A DNA stretch of 63,231 nt, the filler included, from Rhabdomonas costata (Eukaryota): assembly GCA_019059605.1 (NCBI GenBank). It is 18 parts of 18 records of this genome, joined end to end, with 100 filler letters (N's around TTAATTAATTAA, not from the genome) between each part and the next. Parts side by side here need not be neighbours in the genome. Positions count along the whole stretch, not along the records: positions 21,101 to 24,513 come from JAHMHO010000880.1; 17 more parts are not named here. One strand, 5' to 3'. The notes beneath the pieces were generated by a model, which made no database searches, had not been told where the DNA came from, and saw only the letters and a program-made list of their open reading frames with translations. Below, piece after piece: positions 3,520-63,231 of the stretch (position 1 is its first letter; every line of letters starts with the position of its first letter). Position numbers and translations under genes: made by a program.

Positions 3520-4252
3520 GGGGGTGGGGGCAAAATCAAGGCGAATACGTGGTTTCTGGCTTGACATGGCCAAAAATGATGGAAAAATGAAGCAGCGCTC
3601 AAGAACTACGTGTGTACTTCGTGTAGGATGGGGAAGCCAGAATAATAAGGCTGGGGAGACTTGACTATACGGAGCTCAGAGAAAGCGAATTATGAGCCAT
3701 TTTTTACTGTGTGATAGGGCTTTTTCGAATCGAGCTTTGTCAATTGTTATTCAGTATCGGCAACTTCACGCGCCACAGCAGCAAAGGCACACTTGACCAT
3801 GTCGAATCTTGTTCTGATTCCATCCAGACCCCGTCGCTGCTACAGGCATACAGACAGGCATACGACAAAAGATGGGAAGGAGGCGGTATGAGGGAGAATG
3901 GGTGAGCTTTTTGGGCTGGCGCGCTTGAGCGAAAACCGCAGGAGCAAACCTTCGCCAGGAGACTCCCCGGGCAAGGAGCACATGTCCTCCTCTGGGAGCT
4001 CGATCGAGAGGGTGTCCAGCACAAGCGCCGTGGCGCTCACAAGGTCCTGAGTTTGGTCAACACTATATGCTGGTTCCTAAAACAAATCTCGCCGACGAAA
4101 TCAATTGACAATCGGAGAAACAAATGCGAGTGACAGTCTCCATCACTTTCTCCCGAAAATAGTCAGAAGTCCGTGAAGGACAACATGTTTCAGTTTTTAA
4201 GACACCAAATACCGTATTCACCCAAATCACTATCACTCCTAACCCGGCGCAC

Positions 4253-8430: not shown

Positions 8431-10560
8431 GTGGAGGGCGATTTCTTCGGCAGCTGTGGCCAGCACGAGGCCAGACTATTGCAGTAGAGTCCCGATGCTG
8501 CCGCCCCTGCACCTTTGGAGTGCGAAAGCGTACACCATTATGAAAAAATTGAATCTTGGTAGTAAAGGTAATGTTCTTGTGCATCCCAAGAAAACGGTGA
8601 ACGAATGTACAGGAGGTTGTGCCAACCTTGGCTCTCTGGGAGCGTATGTTTGATGGAAAACAAGGGCCGGCCGAAGGGCCTAAGCTTTGCCGATATGATT
8701 GCAAGTAAGGCGTGCCCTTCAAATTCACAGCTGTAATTACTATAAGGCGATAAATCGTTTAAGTGTTCCAGCAGTGTGTTCAAACACACAGCAATGGTAA
8801 ATCTCAAAGTTAAATTTTGGCTTCTGGCTAACGAGTGGATGAAACAGTTCCACGGAGGTTAGTTTGCAGCTGGGGCATGAGCAGGCGACAGAGACGCCCG
8901 AAGCGGAGGTGATTCGCTCAGTGTTTGACGGCGCTGTAAGCCAAACCGCCGCTCGAACAAAAAACAAGAGTTGTCTTCATACCGCAGCGTGGACCACCAC
9001 AGGCTGACGTAACTCGGGTCCTCCGATAGTCTCCAACCAAGTAGTACCCCGACAACAGCAGCAACACAGCGCAGAGCACATTTTTGGAGGAGGTGGTTAA
9101 CATATTACGCCGCCAAAGTGAAAGACAGAGGAATACGAAAAGACCAACAGGAGAGGAAGAAGACAAAAAGGCTGATAGGACGTGAGGATAATTCTCCATT
9201 TTTTTCTGCAGCGATTTAAGTCCTCAAAGGCTGCGAAGCTGAGCGAAGAGCTAGCCGCGCAGAATGGCTTCTGTCACTGTTTGGTCTATAAACGGCCTGC
9301 AAGGGAAACACCAATCATACCCGCAACAATGTGGTCGGTTTGGAAGCCAAGAACAAATGCCAAATGACGATCAAAATATTAAGTACGTGTGTCCATGTCA
9401 TTGGTTGCATTAGATTCTCCCCGCTTGCGGTTCAGCAGTATGCGCGGAGCCTTCACAGTACACTGGTCTATCTGCATTCTAATGTTTGGAAATTGCTGCT
9501 ATTCTTACGGGCATGAGAGGCTGCGCTTCCATATGCTTCGCTGTGAAGCGTGTGGATCTACTTGTTCACTGTGCTCGACGTGGACAAAGACAAGATCTCG
9601 TGCCCTTTTTGCGTACCTCCTCGTGGTTGCAGTGGAGTTCATATGGGTGGGCTTCGTTTGCATGATGGATAACGGTGGTTAGTGCCGGAGTTCATGGTGC
9701 TGATGCTAGTGTCTCAGTTCAACGTGACTTACGTGGGGTTGGTGGTGTCCGCGGTGGACTGACAAGGCCAATTGCAGAATAAAAGAAGACAAGTGCTTAG
9801 AAGGTGAACTATTTTGGGACATGTGCAAAATTTTCTGGGACGCAAAAAGGACATTTCTGAACACACTACCGGGAGGGGGCAGGAGGCTCAATACTTTATT
9901 GTTCAAGACATTAATCTCCACGTGGCAGTACCAAACCTTTGACACAGCGTCTATACAATATACTCTATACATCAGTCCGATGTAGCCGATGCCGAGTCAA
10001 ACGGTTTGGTCGACAAGACCCATGGCAAATTGTGGTGCATGAAGGCCACACATCATTCGACAAGAAAAAGGAAAAAAAAAGTGCTGAAAACGTCGGGATC
10101 CGCAAATTTTGGGTGGAGGGGATGGCGAGATCTAACATCATAAAGCTAGACGAAGATACGGTCGATGGACATGTACGATAAAATGGGCGAGTTCGGAATG
10201 ATATTCATAACGCGAGCAGCCACAAAAGAAAATGGAGGTTGGTCAGGTCGGGGGATGAATGATTTTGGTCGCTTCGGCGCTTGATTTGCTGACCCGAAAG
10301 CGTGACGTAACCCAGGCGCGGACCACGGAAAGGCAATATTTCACCTCCTGACCGGTATGAGGTGAAAACCTTGGTCTCTCTATGCTTGCAAAATAATGAC
10401 TCGCCTTTGTTCAAGAACCTATCCAATTCGCGTCCACATCACGCGCACACAAAACNNNNNNNNNNNNNNNNNNNNNNNNNNNNNNNNNNNNNNNNNNNNT
10501 TAATTAATTAANNNNNNNNNNNNNNNNNNNNNNNNNNNNNNNNNNNNNNNNNNNNGTTTG

Positions 10561-10760
10561 TTGGTATCTTCTGGATGTGAAAATGTTCAAGTTGCCTCGG
10601 GTATTGTCCACCCTCTCTCCTCTTCGTTCTCCTTCTGTGGCGCTGATTTATATCCAAGTGGTCAGGCACATAAATCAGCGCCACAGAAGGAGAACGAAGA
10701 GGAGAGAGGGTGGACAATACCCGAGGCAACTTGAACATTTTCACATCCAGAAGATGCCAA
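10561..10760. repeat. Terminal fold-back inverted repeat (91-bp arms 10561-10651 and 10670-10760, 18-nt loop)
   Basis: The arms are reverse complements with 1 mismatch. It begins 5 nt from the contig start, so it is probably an amplification chimera. Confidence 0.95.
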
Positions 10761-10872
10761 AAAATTCCCCTTTCCTGTCATTCTCTTTCTCTCCCGAAGA
10801 ATTAGTGGCAATAAAGGAAAAAAAACCAAACCAAAGCAAGCTCGCAGCGGGATAGGGAAGGGGCGGGGAAAC

Positions 10873-16834: not shown

Positions 16835-17840
16835 CTGAGCATCTGTTCCTTTGGTGGAATAAAATGCCTCTGATAACTTCAGCGCAGTTCAGAAATGCAA
16901 GCCTAGGCACCTCACAGTAGAAGTCCGCATTACGGACGGCAGAAGCACGAAAAAGAGGAAGCAGACGTCTGTGTTTGAGAATTCTACAGAAGCTTGAAGG
17001 CACACGCAGTCTCATGTACCAATTATTAACCCGTCCGACACACACACACATGGCCTGTATTCTGATCAAACCAATTCTAAAAGGAATACCAAAATCACCG
17101 CTCTGGCATTGTAAAATCTGCGGGATGACACTTTCAGTGTGATGAAACTCACGCATCACACAGGTATCGGAACAAAACCTTTGATGTATATGCATGTACA
17201 CGTGCCATTGTTGTTGGGGTTGGGGTTTGCGTTTAGGTTACGCTGGCTTATTGGCCTCGTCCACCCTTTGTGTTGCCGTTTGTTACACTCAGTTTCAGCT
17301 GAGTGGATAGTACTACTTCCTCACCCTCTGCACTGGCAAGGGTACTCTCGCCATTTTGCTCAGAACTGGCGACAACAACAGATGAAAAAAGCACCGGACT
17401 AACTGTCATAGCCAAGCAAAGGCAATTTCAAATATCCGCAAAAGCCAAAAACGTTAAGCACTGCTAAGCGTATAACCCCCACACCCNNNNNNNNNNNNNN
17501 NNNNNNNNNNNNNNNNNNNNNNNNNNNNNNTTAATTAATTAANNNNNNNNNNNNNNNNNNNNNNNNNNNNNNNNNNNNNNNNNNNNGGTTGGTGGTAGGT
17601 TTCATTGATCACAGCACAATGCGTTGTTTCGCGACACTCCCGGAGCGTCTGAACGCATATTTCCGTCGAAAAGTTGACTTGAGGAGATGTGAACCACTGC
17701 AAAAGCTTCACAATCAGCGGCACCCGAGACGAGGATTGCAATCCTGGTTTTTTTCCAGCTCCACCCAACTCTTCATGTCGACTTTTTGCCCTTCCCATAG
17801 TCCGCAAACACATGTCTTGATTGCTGCCAGCTCAGAGGTT

Positions 17841-20996: not shown

Positions 20997-21111
20997 CCCC
21001 NNNNNNNNNNNNNNNNNNNNNNNNNNNNNNNNNNNNNNNNNNNNTTAATTAATTAANNNNNNNNNNNNNNNNNNNNNNNNNNNNNNNNNNNNNNNNNNNN
21101 TGTGGTGGTGG

Positions 21112-21153
21112 AACAATGGCAAGCGTGGAGTTAACTCCACGCTTGCCATTGTT
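21112..21153. repeat. 42-bp perfect palindrome at contig start
   Basis: aacaatggcaagcgtggagtt|aactccacgcttgccattgtt. Probably a fold-back artefact. Confidence 0.95.
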
Positions 21154-21765
21154 TCACTTCCCCATCAAACCACCACAACGCAAGGCGCCTTCAGATCAGT
21201 AAAAAAAATGAAAACGACTCTACCCAGCAATCAAGTGATGCTGATGAAGCTGATAGGGGGATCGATGGGACGGCTGGGAAGAAAAATTGGCACGTCAGTT
21301 TGCGATCTAGTGGAGTGACTTTTCGATGCGATGTACTGACGGGATGAAAAAGACTGGCCAAAACGGCTTACACAGTCAATTTCGTTTGCAGGTAAGTAGG
21401 GGTACGCGGGGTAGCGAGCAAATTAATTGTGGCTCTGTTTGACAAAGATGCCGATCAATCTGTGCTGTTAAAAACATAATCTCGGAAGAAAGTAAAGGAA
21501 AAAAGATGGACGGGGGCATGTATGACGTGCGCAAGCGAATGAAGATTCAATGCATATTCAGCACTTATTGCAAGCCTTTAGAGGGTAAAGCTGAAGCCGG
21601 CTCGGGGTCTTTTCTATGCACTGTGGTGTGTGGCCGGTCCTAAGGTGCAAGCCATTAAAACCTCTGAAATGCATGGGAACTGAAATATCGGGTTCCTCCC
21701 TGCTCTAACTTCAGCGTTTTACTCGCCTTCGCCCGCATCCCCGAGCTTCTGGATCCCCAAGATAC

Positions 21766-21889
21766 CTATTCTCGGAGCTGCTAAAAACGGACAACAGGTC
21801 CAGTGCAACCACCCAGCTGTACAGATATCCGTACAGCCCGACGTCGTAGCCTGTCGCGAAGCCAATCCAGGTGGCCCCGTAGTGGGTGT
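21766..21889 (-). CDS. Alternative, paralogous M3 peptidase exon; second version of exon 22792-22669
   Basis: 124 nt, tag| and |gtatct borders, phase 1 to phase 2, open frame (D)THYGATWIGFATGYDVGLYGYLYSWVVALDLLSVFSSSEN. 18 of 40 residues are identical to the upstream exon, with no gaps. Confidence 0.88.
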
Positions 21890-22668
21890 CTATTTCAAGA
21901 AATGGTAAGACGCACTGGTGGGGTGGGGTGGGCGTGGGCCCTAATGCCCACTATTTGCATGCATGCCCTTGCGATCCAAGTACCGAGTGCAAGACAACCG
22001 AAAGCCATCGGAACCATCCCCAACCCATCACCACCACCCACAATTCCGATGCAGTCACCGATGCTCAAAACGTTCAGGTTTTCAGTGAGCAAAATCAAAA
22101 GCAATGGCAAAATGGCAAAGTCACAAAAAATAACAAAAAAAAACGATGGCACCCAGAAAATGAAGGAAGGGGAGTGACGATGGAGGTTAATAAACGACAG
22201 CCAAGGGTCAATTGCGTATCAACAAAAACATCTGCACAGTCCGCGATATAGCAGAAAGAGAAAAAGGAAAAAACGTCAAAAAGGTCTTATCGCTCTTCCG
22301 GGGATCTTTCTGGGTATTCTCTGAGTGAAAAGGGTGACGTTCGGGCCGAATTAACTGGTCGAACCCACTGAAGCAGATCTAAAGCGGACCGAAGACTTAA
22401 GGACCTCATGTTGAGGGGTCAGGCACTTGAGATGACCATTCTCCGCCTCCGGGTTATAAATACACCACGATAATATATAATGGTTCTCTTTGGCCACTTT
22501 AAGGCCTTTTCAAAAAATTTCAACGACACAAGGGGTGCTTCGATCGTTGTTGTCCTGTATACTGAGACTAACTCCTCGGCCGGGGTTGATTAGAATACCT
22601 TTCAAAACGTTGGCGATCACTGAATCTTCATTGTGTACACAGAGCAGACACACAACACACAATCTTAC

Positions 22669-24513
22669 CCGGAAGGAGATCCCTGGAAACTGGCGAACAG
22701 GTCGTAGGCGCGCACGTCACTCCAGAGATAGCCAAAGTAGCCCGAGTCGTAGCCACTCACAGGGTGGTACCAAGTCGCCACAAAGTTGGTGCCTGAAGCA
22801 CATGGTCAAAGTCAAAGGATGCATGTGAGTAGAGACGAAACACAAGATATGCGACTACTGTAACTACTTGCATCAAGAAGCAAGCTACCACCATCAACCA
22901 TCAAAACCCGCCCCAATCACATTCTTCCAGGATATACAGCGCCTTCAGGAAAGAAAACAGAAGTGTAAACAGAAGAAGAAGAAGAAACAGAAAATTTTCC
23001 ATTTGCGCAGTTTTGGTGTGCTCCCAAAACACCCCCAGCGGTATAGCAATAGGGATGCAGTTTCCAAGGCCCCACAGTTGGTTCGCCGTTCGCCGTTCGC
23101 CGTTCGCGTGGGCAGTGTAGAACAAAGCGAATCAGCGAAGAGGCACCCCAAGTTGCACGGTAATTCAAGCAATAGATTGGCTGCATTCTCGAGCAAACGT
23201 GGACCTTAAAAAGCTTTTCCACGATCGATGTTGCCCGAAAAAAGCCGAAAAAAAACGTACCCTCAATGGACTTCTCGCCCAGGTACTTCTGCCTCATTCT
23301 GTCAAATAGCTGTGCACAGTCCAAGCCCTGCTGACCTTCGAAGTTGTAGGGCGGCGGGCCAGAGTGCAGTTTCATGTCGTAGGAGGCCAGGAAGACCAGT
23401 CCTGCGGTCCGATGCGGACACTACATAGCATATAAGGCTGGGTAAGAAATCCGGTTGAGAAAAAGGTGGTCCCAAAAAGGCGGAATCAACAATCTCGTCA
23501 TAACCCATTGCGTATAAAAACGCATTGCTGCTGCACACGAATAATCCAATACTCCACAGCAAGACCGAAGTTTTCTTGCCCAAAGCGCCTGACAGCTTTC
23601 CCTCCTCCCCCTCACCTTGGTAGTGGTACCCAATGTTGTGGTACTTCGCGGCGACCAGGCTGGTGACATCCTCCTGGGGGAGCGCCCTGTTGAGGTCCTC
23701 GTAGTGCCCCGACAGCCGCGCCAGCACCGGGGCCTCGAAGACCCACTGCTGGAAGGCCATCGACGGTACCTCTAGGAAATCTTGCTCCACCCCGCCCGGG
23801 TAGGGCACCATGGGCCAGGCCCACGAGAACACGGAGTACGGGGTGCGGGTGCAGAGGCAGTGCATCACGTGGCCGAACTCGTGGAAGAAGGTCTCCACTT
23901 CTCTGCGGAGGGGAAGGAGGATGGGGTGGAGGGGCAGAGTTTCACCGTAACCGATGATTCCCAAACAGGCCCAGTTCACATAAATAAACGCACACACAAC
24001 TGCGATACGAAGGTTTGCAAGACGTCTGCAAGACCGCGAACTTCAGACGAGCGACGCAAGATCATAGGTGCTTTCGAGTTTCGAGGGTCCACACCATACA
24101 TCTGTGGCCTTTTAGTCGATCGCTTTTCTGACAAACAAAACAAAGGCACCACCAAAAGACTACATGCGTATTGGTGGGGAGGTCTGAATATTTACTTAGG
24201 GGGACGGGGGTGCGTCTCCTCCAAAACAGAGTTCCCTCCCCAGACCTTTCCTGGGCAATGGGAACAGCCCTACACAGATCCGGCCAATGCAACACCACAT
24301 CCCGTCAAAATGCAAGTTACTTCGCAAAGACATTCTAAGAGACCGTCAATTCTCGTACAGTCAGTTCCATTGGCGAACGCCGGGAGGGCACCGGAAGGCT
24401 CCAAAGCCGATGGTTGCCGCACCTGAAGAGTAGCAGCGAGGGCCTGGAGCCCACCGGGGCGCTGAAGTTGCAGATCATCGCGCAGGCCGGCAGAACCCGA
24501 GCCCCACCCAACC
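22669..24513 (-). CDS. Peptidase M3A (thimet oligopeptidase/neurolysin family), internal exons 24513-24423, 23902-23616, 23401-23261, 22792-22669
   Basis: LPACAMICNF..PSLLLF/REVETFFHEFGHVMH (HEXXH)...VEQDFLEVPSM...LSGHY.../GLVFLASYDMKLH.../GTNFVATWYHPVSGYDSGYFGYLWSD. All introns are GT-AG and in phase. Confidence 0.95.
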
Positions 24514-38790: not shown

Positions 38791-40048
38791 CTGGATTGCT
38801 GAAACCGACGCAAACTACGAGGAATGCAGAGCCCCAGCGATCTCGGCAAAACCCGTGCTGCAGCAGTAACCGAACTTGAGAGAGTGTAAGATTTGAAACC
38901 AGAAGGCTCGCAAAACCCTGCAATCTGGGAAGCAAGCGATTGGGATAATCGGGGCAATGGTTAACGCGCGCCGCAGAGAGCGCTTCGAGCATTCGCTCTG
39001 ACAGCTGCGACGCAACGTCATTTGCCATGAAATCAGAGGACCGAGCCGTGACATGTCCCGAAAGCCAAAGCTCCACCACAGTTCGCAGCGCACTCGAGAG
39101 GACCTCGTCCATGGCCTGTTCTTCACCGGCACTGGTGGGGCACAAAACGGCGTGAAAAAACGAGTTGATTTCCAGCACCTAAAAGAAAATCAAAAATTCA
39201 TCCAGCAACGAGGTAGAGCAGCTTTTCCTATATAGCTACAGAAAGGACGGCAACCAAAAAAGTGACGTGGATACCGGCACTCCGGCCTCAGTCAACTTCA
39301 AGTATGGGCTTTCCACCGCAAGAAAGTCCTCATCAATGTCGAGCACATAGGCATCTCCGGGGTTGGTTGGAAGTCCACGTGACACAGCATTAGTCTCGGA
39401 AAAATGAGCAACCTCAGCACGAGGTCCACCTTCAGTGTTGCACATTGAGGACGCCACTACAGACTCCTCGCCAACGCTGTTAACTGCCAAGCACTCATTG
39501 GTGAGACTCTGTGTTTTCCAAAAAGCCTTGCACACACAAGGGGAGTTTTCCAGCGGTTTTGTTACACCATATCGATGTGCGTTTCGTGCGCTGCAGTTCA
39601 CCAAATGGGGAGCATCAGAGGGCCACCATGAGCGAGGGAGCCACCCTGGCCAAATCCACAAAACTCGCCGAACAACCCCAGCCAGTATAGTGCCCACTAA
39701 AAAGTCGTCGTTGCTGACCGCCAGTGTGGATGCCAGGGCCCGAGCATCGACATGACTTGAAGGCCATTTCATTTTTTGAAATCTTTCAGGGAGCAACCTT
39801 GGAAGGCCCAAGTCAGAGTGAGCATCAATGTGAAGCACCGTCTGAGGTAGATTTGGGCCCAGAGAGAGCCAGTACCTAACGACCTGATGATGCTCCTCGA
39901 CAATGACAATAGTGAGAGGTGCATCAACCGAAGAGCTCGCACCAATAAATCGGGGCAAGTAAGGGGCCAAACGAATGCCCTGGCTTAAGGCAACGACAAC
40001 AACCGACAGTGCCAGGAAATAAATTCCCCGGAGTCGAAATCTGACCAT
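38791..40048 (-). CDS. UPF0489 (C5orf22-like) protein with N-terminal signal or anchor (exons 40048-39275, 39178-38791; 3' incomplete)
   Basis: IVEEHHQV..YW, VLHIDAHSDL, SNDDFL...VLWIWP.W and YVLDIDEDFL are UPF0489 motifs. Hydrophobic stretch IYFLALSVVVVAL at the N-terminus. Confidence 0.85.
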
Positions 40049-41072
40049 CAACCAGAAAGGAGACAAAAAACACCCCCTGAAGCATCAAAGCAGAAACCAA
40101 AAGTGCAGATCACAACTGGAAGGGGTAGTCTGCCCCCCACCCTATCAAACCTTGTTGTTGTCACTCACTGGGCACAGCAATTATTCATCCTCCAGCAACA
40201 AATTCTCCACGCAGTTCTTAGGCTTTACTGTCAGCAGGTTGTTGGGCGTTTTTTTGCACATGCTTCAGTTTATTAGTCATAGGGTCTGTCCCCCCCTGGT
40301 GGCAGTGAGGTCAAACAGACGATGGGGTTTACTATCACCTTTAAAAGACGACAGTGACCAGAAAGAGTGGTTAGTGTTTGGTATCAACAATTTTCTGTGC
40401 ACTTGCGTCTTTTTTCCTGTCACTGTCGTGTTTTGGTTTCTCGTTGTTGAATGTTCAACCCAGCAAGTGTTGATTCGAAAATTACACCTCGTTTCGGGCC
40501 CCCCTGCCAACCTTCACTTAGAAACAGGACAGAAGTCATCTGGGAAACTAAAACAAGGGAAATAAAATTCAAGTTCAGAAATCATGTCGTTACAGATGGT
40601 AAACGGACTCACTTACGGCCACTAACTTCCACTAATAGTGACCTTGTCCTCACTATCCTCTCGCAATTATAAGCTTGTGTGCTGCGCGTCTGGGAGCCGT
40701 TGGAGCCTATAGAGGGTCCTCACCGCAAACCCGAGCTAATTCAGAATAACCGTCCCTCCTTGAAAACTTTGCTTGACTGGCCCACCCTGTCTTAGCACCT
40801 ATAATCTTGGGTTCCGCTGCGTTCCTCTGCTCAGGACAGCCTGGACCAGCAAAAAATAACGATGTGGGCGTGACAACGTTCACCTAAAGGCCACGCCACA
40901 ATGAAATTCTGGTCCGTGTAGCAGCTACAGGTTTCATGTACAAAAAAGAGCGCAGAGTTCAGTGAATTGCATTCAGGAAACTAATTTGGAACTGAATATG
41001 CGTAAAACGTATTTGCCAGTGTATTTGCTAGGTTTACTAATCAGACGCACCTGGTGAGGTTGACATCTGTGA

Positions 41073-59829: not shown

Positions 59830-62800
59830 GGGTGTTGTGGGGATCGTCTGTAACGCTGATAAAGTACCTGGCAGAGAACACGAAGAGGATCTTGCCGGGG
59901 CCCACGAGCGATGAGGACACGTTGAAGAAGAAGAATAGTGGTGAGGAAGGGGAGAACGGAAAGCTGAACCCGGTCAGTGTACAAGTGTAGGCGGTGCTGC
60001 CCAAGTTACAAACCTTTGAGAGGTTGCTGTTGGGTTGGGTGCCCCAGCGCAAGCCAGAGGCGGTGTCGATGACACTTTTGTTGACCACAACTTGCTCCCC
60101 ACCAATGGAGGTTCCGGAGCCATTGACCAGGTAACTCACGACAACACTGCGGTTGAGGACGGCATAGGTAAAGGTGCTGTTGAGACCGAAGGTCGCATTG
60201 ACTTGGATGCTTGGCGAGGTAGCGATCGTTCGAAAGCTGGATGCAGCGAACCAGAGAGTAAGGTTCAGAAGCCCCACTGTGGTTTTGAGTGGCGTGAAGA
60301 ACACGTAAATCATCTGAGGAGAGCCAGTCCAGCGCATCCCGGCGCAGCTAATGTTGGGCGAGCTCGCAATGTTCGAACTTGTGTTGGTCGCGTTGCTGGC
60401 GCCTGTAGTGTTGGTAGCATTGATACTTTGCAGGAAGCACGGCGAGGAGACCAGAGGATCTGGTGTGGTTCCCCATCGCACTCCCGAGGGGAGATCAACT
60501 TTTGCTGAAGGTAGCAGCACTGCCTCTCCGGATGTGGACATACCCGTCGAAGACAAATTGTATGCCAGCACGACACGGGAGCCAGATAGAATTGCGACCG
60601 GGGAAGGCGTCTGCAAAAGCTGCACAAAGCCAAGAACCTGGAGAGATGGAATGTGAGATACAGTACTGAAGTTCGTCGCTGTCCAGTTGAAAGCGGGCAG
60701 GCTGCCGACAACCGGGGTGCTAATGGTGAAGAAGAGCGCGATGTTGCTGGGGGCTGTTGCCAGGGTGACTCCAGTGAAGTAACAGATGTATGACGCGGAC
60801 ACGTTCTGCCGAATGCAAGGTCGAGCTCCAGCCAGACTAGCAACGGTATTCCACTGCAGCGTGCCGTTGACGACGGAGCTGGGAACGGAAACCTGGGCAG
60901 TGGACGTCGTTCCAGTGGCATTCACATTGTACAGCAGAGTGATCGTGGCTCCAGCCAAAACCTGGCATGAAGGATAGCACACCACCGGTGATACCTCGGG
61001 GTTGATCTGCCCCAACACAAAGATGGAGCCGTTCCCAGGGACCCACGTGGTGTTCTGGAAGTTATTCGCTTGAAAAATCATCCCTTGGTTCAGCAAACCC
61101 ACAGTCGTGACCGTCGGCGCCAAGAACACCCATACATGAGCATCTGTGTTGCGGTAAAACGTCAGGTTCGAGGATAGCCCGCACTGGTAGTAGCTTCTGA
61201 CAGCAGGGCAAGCCATGGAGGAATTTGAGCTGTTCACCATATTCCAGCGTGGAGTACCTGATGTCATCGTCAAGGGAATGAGCAGGGACTCTCCGCCAGC
61301 GCTTGTCCCGGTTGCTCGAAGCACGAAGTGAATCGAGAGACTGGTTCCTGAAAGTTGGGGCGCAACAGGATAGATGCTGGGGATAGAAATCAGGGTGTTG
61401 GAAAGCAGCACATTCGTCTGCAGCTGGAAAGCGTTACGGTTGGGGTCAAGGAAGGCCATCACAGTGATAGGCACCACCTGGGTCCAAGCGATGTAATCTG
61501 TGGCATCCAGTGTGACGTTGACCCCCAGGAATCCGACTGCGGAAGTGGTGGGAGTGAAGTAAAGCCACAACGGGACCAGTGCAGATTGTGCGGAAAAGGC
61601 CGCACTGAGGTCACAGACCCAGTTATAGCCCACCACAGTGCAATTTTGGGCCCTTGAAGAGTTGTCGATGACATTCCACCGCAAGGTGTTGGAAACCACG
61701 CCAAGAGGCACAGTGAGCGTTTCCCCGCCAAGAGTGGGGCCAGAAGGAACCACCGTAAAATTGAGCTTGACAGGCTGCATCGCCAGCACCTTGGGACTGG
61801 CATTTGTATAGCTGACGGCGAATGTGCCCAAGGCGGTGTATGGTGCGAGGTAGGCCTTTGACTGAAAACCCTCTGCAAAGAACTCAATATTAATGGTACC
61901 GGTGCCAACGGAGATATTGGACGGAAGCAAGAAGAGATACAGGTGGGTGTTCTCCGAGAAAATGCCTGTGGAAAGCCGGCAGAACCCCAGCGCCCCAAGA
62001 TTCGTGCAAGGCTCGCTAACTGAAGCATCTGTGGTACTTCCCCAAGACAGGGCTCCGCTGGTGACGTCCACGTTGCTCAGAACGAGAGCCTCCCCACCGA
62101 TGGACGTTCCCGTGGCATTGATGGCAAGGTGCACGACAACTACCCCCAGAGATGCATTGAAGTTGGTTTCTCCTGCCACAGCGAGGGATCCCAGGACAGT
62201 GATGTTGGTCTCGCAAACGCTGTCCGCAAAGTTCTGGGCAACGAACCACACACTTAAATTCCACGGGCCCACCCTGGACAGGTTCGGTGTAAGGAATACC
62301 CGCACGATCTGGGGTAGGGTCGTCCACCGCATACCGCTGCAGCTCACGTTTCCGTCGTGGAGGCTTGAGGAGTCAGAGACCAGGACACAGGGTTTGGCCA
62401 GGGTGATGTCCGAAGAATAGCCCCACCTCACACCCGAGCCGAGGTTAACCTCGCTGGCCGGAATCATGATTGCCTCCCCGCTCTTCGAAACCCCAGAGGA
62501 GTTGAAGGAGTAGGTCAGTGCGATGAGCTCACCGCTGGCCACGACGGTGTCCGGGGCAGTGGAGACGGCAGGGAAGGTGATGAACCCGAGCACGACAACC
62601 CGGGGGACCCGGAACACAGGGCTGAAGCTGCTCGCCACCCAACCGAAAGGAGACAACGTTCCTACCACGTTTGAGGCGATGGTGAAGCTGATAAAAACGG
62701 GCTGGGGAGTGGGGGAAAACGATAACCACAGCGAGCAGACCCAATACATGGTGTCATTGGTCTCCACACATACTCGGGAGGTCTCCAAAGTCCCATCCGG

Positions 62801-63115
62801 ACTCCATATCACCCCGCTTACCTCCGAGTAGGGAACAAGTATTTGGGCAGTGGATGTCGTTCCAGTGGCATTCACCATGAACTTCAACGTCACCGTTGAG
62901 CCCGCCAGAACCTGGCATGAAGGATAGCACACTGTTGGCAGCGCTTCGGGGTTGATCAGCCCCAGCACAAAAATAGAGCTGTTCCCAGGCACCCAAATGC
63001 TCCTCTGAAAGTAGGTTGCCTCGAGCACCACGCTTTCATACAGCTGACCCACAGTTGTGACCGTCGGCGTGAAGAACACCCAAACATGGGCGTCCGTGTT
63101 GCGATAAAACGTCAC
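59830..63115 (-). CDS. Large repetitive S/T/N/V-rich putative surface glycoprotein; about 1095 aa of one exon, incomplete at both ends
   Basis: Uninterrupted 3.3-kb ORF with many NxS/T sequons, ~130-aa two-Cys modules and a 650-aa super-repeat (TFYRNTDAHVWVF at 63115 and 61165). Confidence 0.88.
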
Positions 63116-63231
63116 ATTAGAGCCACCGGCACAAGTGTTGGCGGAGAGGCACTGCTGGTTCCATTATCGATGTCCACGGGGACTCCACGCTGGAATGTGC
63201 TGAACTCTCACAACTCTTCCTGGCCCTGCAC
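63116..63231 (+). other. Inverted segment of the same glycoprotein gene (inversion junction at about 63113-63122)
   Basis: The plus strand reads IRATGTSVGGEALLVPLSMSTGTPRWNVLNSHNSSWPC, homologous to the minus-strand LRATGTSAGGESLLIPLTMTSGTPRWNMVNSSNSSMAC. Confidence 0.9.

Follow-up and report, generated by a model that had tools for sequence, protein, structure and literature searches.

Tandem duplication of an internal exon can give rise to mutually exclusive exons, and sequence criteria for predicting such exons from genomic DNA have been set out by Pillmann et al. 2011 (PMC3228551). One of the three mechanisms of exclusivity distinguished by Hatje et al. 2017 (PMC5740500, legend of Fig 2) is the shift of reading frame that follows when both exons are included. 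Here we describe a candidate pair of this kind from Rhabdomonas costata (GenBank assembly GCA_019059605.1), located in a stretch of 63,231 bases that is called the window throughout the text. The two exons, designated A and B, belong to a partial gene for a thimet-like M3 metallopeptidase and correspond to a loop of the active site that contacts the substrate.

The role of this loop can be seen in structures of human neurolysin with a peptide bound. There the substrate carbonyl at S1' accepts a hydrogen bond from His601 and from His425, and Tyr606 and Tyr613 bind the backbone at P1 (PMC11310207). The residue roles discussed below are taken from these human structures and transferred to the R. 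costata gene through the alignment of exon A.

An initial annotation of the window had proposed that this gene produces two peptidases of different specificity by exon choice, and its view that such a case had not been described for M3 peptidases agrees with the outcome of our full-text literature search on oligopeptidases, which yielded no account of mutually exclusive exons in M3 peptidases. Exon substitution as a device is well known; its instance in an M3 peptidase is plausibly undescribed, going by the literature found. Our present results indicate that the pair is, by all the signs its sequence carries, a real and anciently duplicated loop exon that is still constrained. We favour, at roughly even confidence, the reading that A and B are tandem homologous exons which would substitute for one another in a mutually exclusive manner.

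The M3 peptidase gene and its two loop exons

The window is composed of 18 contigs of 3,402-3,552 nt each, with linkers of 100 nt between them that consist of 44 N, a 12-nt AT spacer of stop codons and a further 44 N. Genes on opposite sides of a linker are unrelated, and features close to a linker are truncated. The contig with the M3 gene spans 21101-24513 (3,413 nt), and the gene is cut at both 24513 and 21101. Searches with full-length homologs (tblastn), combined with direct reading of the sequence, gave a partial gene on the minus strand with five exons bounded by GT-AG splice sites:

24423 to 24513, minus strand: upstream M3 exon, truncated by the contig end; donor GT at 24422-24421; tblastn match to homologs at 24505-24422; GC content at third codon positions (GC3) 0.89
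23616 to 23902, minus strand: zinc-motif (HEFGH) exon, 287 nt; acceptor AG at 23904-23903, donor GT at 23615-23614; GC3 0.92
23261 to 23401, minus strand: constitutive exon ahead of the pair, 141 nt; tblastn match at 23396-23253, E 1.7e-10 to homolog P0005
22669 to 22792, minus strand: exon A, 124 nt, with the canonical form of the loop; phase 1 to 2; junction codon Gly
21766 to 21889, minus strand: exon B, 124 nt, with a diverged form of the loop; phase 1 to 2; junction codon Asp

The introns measure 520, 214, 468 and 779 nt and are followed by more than 665 nt up to the end of the contig. The truncated upstream exon codes for the segment that precedes the zinc motif. In the next exon, HEFGH and the conserved segment following it can be aligned with homologs, HEFGH being of the HEXXH form, and the open reading frame (ORF) scored 63.6 bits against the Pfam profile PF01432, where the cut-off is 27; the gene is thus a member of the M3 family. 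The glutamate of the segment downstream of HEXXH is the third zinc ligand. The best protein match to this exon shared 60% identity over 97% of its length, or up to 72% over 65%, and identity to the best homolog was 55-60%. The nearest named M3 homologs are scattered among Euglena longa, Amoeba proteus, Diplonema, prasinophytes and dinoflagellates.

The gene is incomplete on both sides. The last approximately 45 residues of the family are coded nowhere in the contig or in the window, as found by tblastn and by hmmsearch with a profile of 68 homolog C-terminal tails (best E = 1.7 in the window and E = 9 in the contig); the gene therefore extends past 21101, and the catalytic domain as present here lacks its C-terminal end. 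The N-terminal part of the protein is likewise without coding sequence in the contig or window. Both gaps are most simply due to the cut contig. Within the contig, no further M3 segment was detected between or downstream of A and B by tblastn, either with homologs of 600-800 amino acids among a set of 120 or with four homologs, nor does the contig have another HEXXH exon in either place. The initial annotation had remarked that neither a terminal exon nor a second HEXXH exon separates the copies, which tblastn and the search with the tail profile bear out. With no terminal exon found between the copies or beyond B, the latter does not belong to a second gene copy further downstream.

Two minor features of the introns may be mentioned. 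A 7-nt tandem repeat in about four copies is present upstream of exon A (window 23075-23105, minus strand). A weak tblastn match just upstream of the zinc-motif exon (23905-23985, minus strand) was considered as a second duplicated segment and rejected, as it arises from translating, in frame, the polypyrimidine tract that leads up to the acceptor at 23904-23903; its resemblance to the peptide of the preceding exon was judged to be chance or low complexity.

The anatomy of A and B is that of interchangeable exons. The constitutive exon terminates with one base (G, 23261) of a split codon, which the first two bases of either copy complete, and the last two bases of each copy form another partial codon. 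Exon A has its acceptor AG at 22794-22793 and its donor GT at 22668-22667; the corresponding positions for exon B are 21891-21890 and 21765-21764. The two copies align without gaps, with 18 of 40 full codons specifying the same residue (44% amino-acid identity) and 64 of 124 nucleotides identical, compared to 54 for the runner-up among all 124-nt windows of the contig, both strands included. Against the 457 positions of PF01432, exon A aligned at 383-407 and exon B at 381-410, and in blastp both matched the same segment in all 17 homologs tested. Even the junction codons yield residues typical of the family, Gly (A, 58%) and Asp (B, 15%) being the two commonest at this column. Near-equal length, a common frame with compatible splice sites, and homology, the three sequence criteria of Pillmann et al. 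(PMC3228551), are all present in the pair. As for their position as neighbouring internal exons, the upstream exons are there and nothing intervenes between the copies; the downstream exon is not seen in the contig.

The frame logic is equally strict. Joining A to B creates a TAG at 21783-21781, inside B and 15-17 nt ahead of its donor, and skipping both copies shifts the frame because 124 is not a multiple of three. The initial annotation had reported the frame shift for inclusion of both copies or neither, along with the coordinates, 124-nt lengths, phases, AG/GT boundaries and 18/40 identity of the pair, and all of this was reproduced by direct reading of the sequence.

Coding constraint and loop residues

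A comparison of substitutions, which the initial annotation had recommended for each exon, was run between the copies. The proportion of synonymous differences (pS) is 0.71 and that of nonsynonymous differences (pN) is lower, 0.42. Since the synonymous sites are saturated, the duplication must be old. Despite this divergence, exon B keeps an open frame, its exact length and both splice sites. In 72 distinct homolog segments, 17 columns are conserved to at least 80%; B retains 11 of them and A 14. The GC3 of exon B is 31/40, while the other exons of the gene have 0.72-0.92 and the introns have a GC content of 0.48 overall. Measured against intron GC, the value for B has a binomial P of 1.4e-4, and not one of 1,982 intron windows reached 31. 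Neutral decay was simulated by evolving exon A in silico, a run being counted as a success when the frame stayed open, AG/GT persisted and 10 or more of 14 conserved columns were kept; the success rate was 3.5e-5 at 44% per-site divergence and 2.5e-3 at 30%. Its codons and conserved columns show that coding constraint has acted on exon B, if not to the present then until recent times. A and B both have Thr at a column that is Ser in 86% and Thr in 1% of the family, which weakly favours duplication within this lineage.

Exon A aligns to residues 593-626 of neurolysin and to the loop of thimet oligopeptidase. At the positions equivalent to neurolysin His601, Tyr606 and Tyr613, exon A has His, Tyr and Tyr, all three residues by which the loop is recognized, and exon B has Gly, Tyr and Tyr. 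The alignment agrees here with the initial annotation, according to which both copies keep the two tyrosines and the second has Gly in place of His. A further difference concerns the position occupied by Ala607 in thimet oligopeptidase and Gly608 in neurolysin, where A has Ser and B has Val. This position is reportedly the subject of Machado et al. 2007, going by the title of that paper. The residue changes of B fit an altered grip on the substrate and could equally be read as damage. Taken by themselves, they suggest that the products of A and B may differ in specificity.

Exon choice and its alternatives

We propose the following scenario for the pair. An ancient tandem duplication of an internal 124-nt exon would have produced two homologous exons, now 779 nt apart, both of which were maintained. 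Either A or B would connect the exon that ends at 23261 to a shared downstream exon located beyond the contig, and two enzymes would result, identical save for 41 residues of the active-site loop. The A form would carry the canonical loop. The B form would keep the two tyrosines that hold the substrate backbone and would be without the histidine that makes a hydrogen bond to the substrate carbonyl beside the scissile bond. With this histidine gone and with a change at the position that distinguishes thimet oligopeptidase from neurolysin, the B form should bind or cleave peptides differently. Exclusivity would be enforced at least by the reading frame, as 124 is not divisible by three and the A+B product stops within B.

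The choice between the two exons may in addition be steered by RNA structure. Two complementary segments of the sense RNA could form a helix:

22618 to 22632, minus strand (sense RNA): 5' arm of the helix, 37-51 nt downstream of the donor of exon A
21538 to 21552, minus strand (sense RNA): 3' arm of the helix, 214-228 nt downstream of the donor of exon B

The helix (22632-22618 with 21552-21538) has 15 bp including one G-U, with an energy of -17.9 kcal/mol. No other helix with 13 or more contiguous pairs and at most one G-U occurs in the sense RNA of the contig, and a length of 15 bp was reached in 1 of 100 dinucleotide shuffles. The arms bracket exon B, and their pairing would loop it out. 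The intron just after A would thus be paired with the intron after B, and looping out of B would bring the donor of A towards the downstream exon. A search of the window for elements complementary to the arms gave two matches, which are the arms themselves, and no second selector. Other structural candidates were discarded. Whole-intron comparison by RNAduplex produced meaningless full-length pairings, no better than those of shuffled sequences, and a G-rich/C-rich pair just upstream of exon B also folded no better than shuffles (z = -0.54). The 15-nt inverted repeat was also considered as a transposon and rejected, as no target-site duplication was visible by eye and no other copy occurs in the window.

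That B is spliced, that both copies join one downstream exon, that the products differ in specificity and that the helix plays a part are all predictions, and several observations weigh against them. The predictions are drawn from DNA and not from RNA. The downstream exon that the missing C-terminus requires was found in neither the contig nor the window. The contig is short, comes from a fragmented assembly and has a palindromic end, which makes misassembly possible. The helix, as a single post hoc observation without covariation data, is a lead and not a result. Exon B has Gly in place of a 97%-conserved His and Leu in place of a 96%-conserved Tyr, and the loss of these residues could also mean loss of function. 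Of 1,722 exons newly predicted in humans with the sequence criteria applied here, 654 are given as validated as mutually exclusive when a single junction read is accepted (PMC5740500). Nor did relatives supply a counterpart of B. The protein collections searched contained no protein of the organism itself. No protein sharing words with B was present among 5.8 billion clusters; an exhaustive HMMER search with B against 1.84 billion representatives returned an unrelated repeat protein of 1,118 residues as its sole match; and a metagenome scan for B-like peptides gave 584 pattern matches, of which none was confirmed. In 80 metagenome loci selected as relatives of the zinc-motif exon, the loop segment was present in all 80 and a tandem second loop exon in none. 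The initial annotation had advised a search of related protist transcriptomes for both isoforms; the metagenome loci and protein collections searched here gave no counterpart of B.

Several loci and proteins encountered in these searches resemble loop duplication or exchange at first sight. Locus L063 has a single loop split into two adjacent pieces, which is not a duplication, and L080 (6001-8456) carries two complete tandem M3 genes with two zinc motifs and loop matches about 1.96 kb apart. Isoforms of Amoeba proteus (P0002 cluster) were considered as a block swap and rejected: P0002 and P0128 differ by a one-residue substitution only, and P0127 and P0129 are truncated. The Euglena longa proteins P0037 and P0126 were rejected likewise, since they differ by a 31-residue insertion after residue 553. 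Both are transcript-derived and fall into the same 90% cluster; the insertion is upstream of the loop and may represent an alternative splice form.

Three other explanations of the pair have to be weighed against mutually exclusive use. The contig could be an assembly chimera, or B a paralogue exon, so that B stems from a second M3 gene misjoined within introns. We regard this as improbable, although the assembly gives some reason for caution. The contig of 3.4 kb belongs to a highly fragmented assembly and begins with a palindrome with arms of 32+32 nt (21101-21164); a second contig of the window starts in the same manner (10556-10765), with arms of 105 nt. Both palindromes have perfect spacing and arms matched to at least 85%, and they have the appearance of artefacts of amplification or assembly at the ends of contigs. 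Moreover, a live paralogue would equally account for the coding constraint and GC3 of B, and exon A is nearer to foreign homologs (up to 25/41 identical residues) than to B (18/41). On the other hand, such a join would need to be located in introns that are not homologous, with both pieces on the same strand, and B has no other M3 exon in the 779 nt before it or the 665 nt after it. Runs rich in G/T or C/A, such as the intron between A and B contains, do not mark a junction, as they are frequent inside all 18 contigs in either orientation. The rare Thr common to A and B and the 15-bp helix, which spans the supposed junction, also speak against a chimera.

B could also be an unspliced pseudo-exon in a long intron, a dead or dying duplicate that may or may not have been in use earlier, with the A form as the only product. 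Its open frame, exact length, splice sites, GC3 and 11 of 17 conserved columns, all kept in spite of saturated synonymous divergence, are difficult to reconcile with this, and the joint neutral probability of 3.5e-5 to 2.5e-3 leaves room only for a very recent death. We therefore give it no better prospects than the chimera, even though B has lost the His and Tyr named above and has Trp at a Glu/Asp column, is further from 76 homolog segments than A on average (15.9 versus 19.9 of 41 residues), belongs to a class of sequence-predicted candidates many of which were not validated in the human set of PMC5740500, and has no likeness in the protein and metagenome collections searched. The possibility that B is a regulatory poison exon, included together with A so that a premature stop lowers enzyme output and no second protein is made, appears the most remote of the three. 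The TAG arising in B upon A+B joining is what such an exon needs, and a helix looping out B would be in keeping with regulation in which B alone is skipped or included. M3-like conservation, codon bias and an exact in-frame length are not needed for this purpose, however, and the stop stands only a few nucleotides before the donor of B.

Mutually exclusive use of A and B consequently remains the reading we prefer. As to the original proposal of one gene and two peptidases, its structural part stands: the copies are homologous, adjacent, equal in length and phase and loop-coding, both have been kept coding, and their joint inclusion leads to a stop. Splicing of B and a difference in specificity retain the status of predictions.

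Other contigs of the window and comparison with known systems

Elsewhere in the window, many contigs open with a short G/T-rich stretch (for example at 3520, 17587, 28123 and 49312) and close with a short C/A-rich one (for example at 17486, 21000, 24513 and 31532). A minus-strand open frame of 1,111 codons (59831-63163) occupies a whole contig; it had no Pfam match, and the 8,000 candidates of 611-1,945 residues ranked best by shared words included no homolog. Another minus-strand ORF (39239-40084, 282 codons) contains a UPF0489 domain (E 1.6e-10). Scans for Rfam families and for tRNAs found none.

If both loop exons are used, one gene provides two oligopeptidases that differ only in the loop gripping the substrate backbone at the scissile bond. 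This would amount to a natural loop-swap experiment on the peptide choice of M3 enzymes, and homologous exon substitution at an enzyme active site would gain an example from outside animals, where few have been validated. If B is unspliced, the pair is merely a well-preserved exon duplicate of little general interest. A broader picture can be drawn only tentatively, and we think it rather unlikely as a whole: in a probably unicellular eukaryote, exclusive splicing of the animal style would switch the active-site loop of an M3 peptidase, remove its substrate-binding histidine and be steered by a helix of the selector/docking type, both the splicing and its steering having arisen independently outside animals.

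To our knowledge, no exon choice at the loop of thimet oligopeptidase or neurolysin has been reported in animal genes. The R. costata gene is like these enzymes (M3A; structures 1S4B, 1I1I, 8VJU and others) in its HEFGH motif, its Pfam M3 assignment and the His601, Tyr606 and Tyr613 equivalents in exon A. Unlike the solved M3A enzymes, it is incomplete in its contig and shares only 56-72% identity with its nearest homologs over the zinc-motif exon. As an exon pair, A and B are like the mutually exclusive exons arisen by tandem duplication that are treated in PMC3228551 and PMC5740500, being neighbouring, equal in length, in the same frame, homologous and furnished with compatible splice sites. 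They also share with those pairs a length not divisible by three, so that joint inclusion or skipping shifts the frame. The documented cases are mostly from animals and validated by junction reads, whereas this one is non-animal, is known from DNA and has its downstream exon out of sight; with 44% amino-acid identity, A and B are also unusually diverged for mutually exclusive exons.

The helix recalls the pairing of docking sites and selectors as presented by Ivanov and Pervouchine 2018 (PMC6071210), in which an element by the variable exon pairs with one in the intron past the cluster and loops out the variant lying between them. Unlike docking/selector clusters, the present locus has one pair only and no competing second selector in the window. 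The nearest functional parallel is the switch between exons 6a and 6e of coq-2 in helminths. That gene codes for a polyprenyltransferase of animals and the case is backed by genetic and biochemical proof, while the change of specificity suggested here is predicted from loop residues; in coq-2, as proposed for the R. costata peptidase, the choice of exon changes the substrate use of an enzyme (Tan et al. 2020, PMC7434440).

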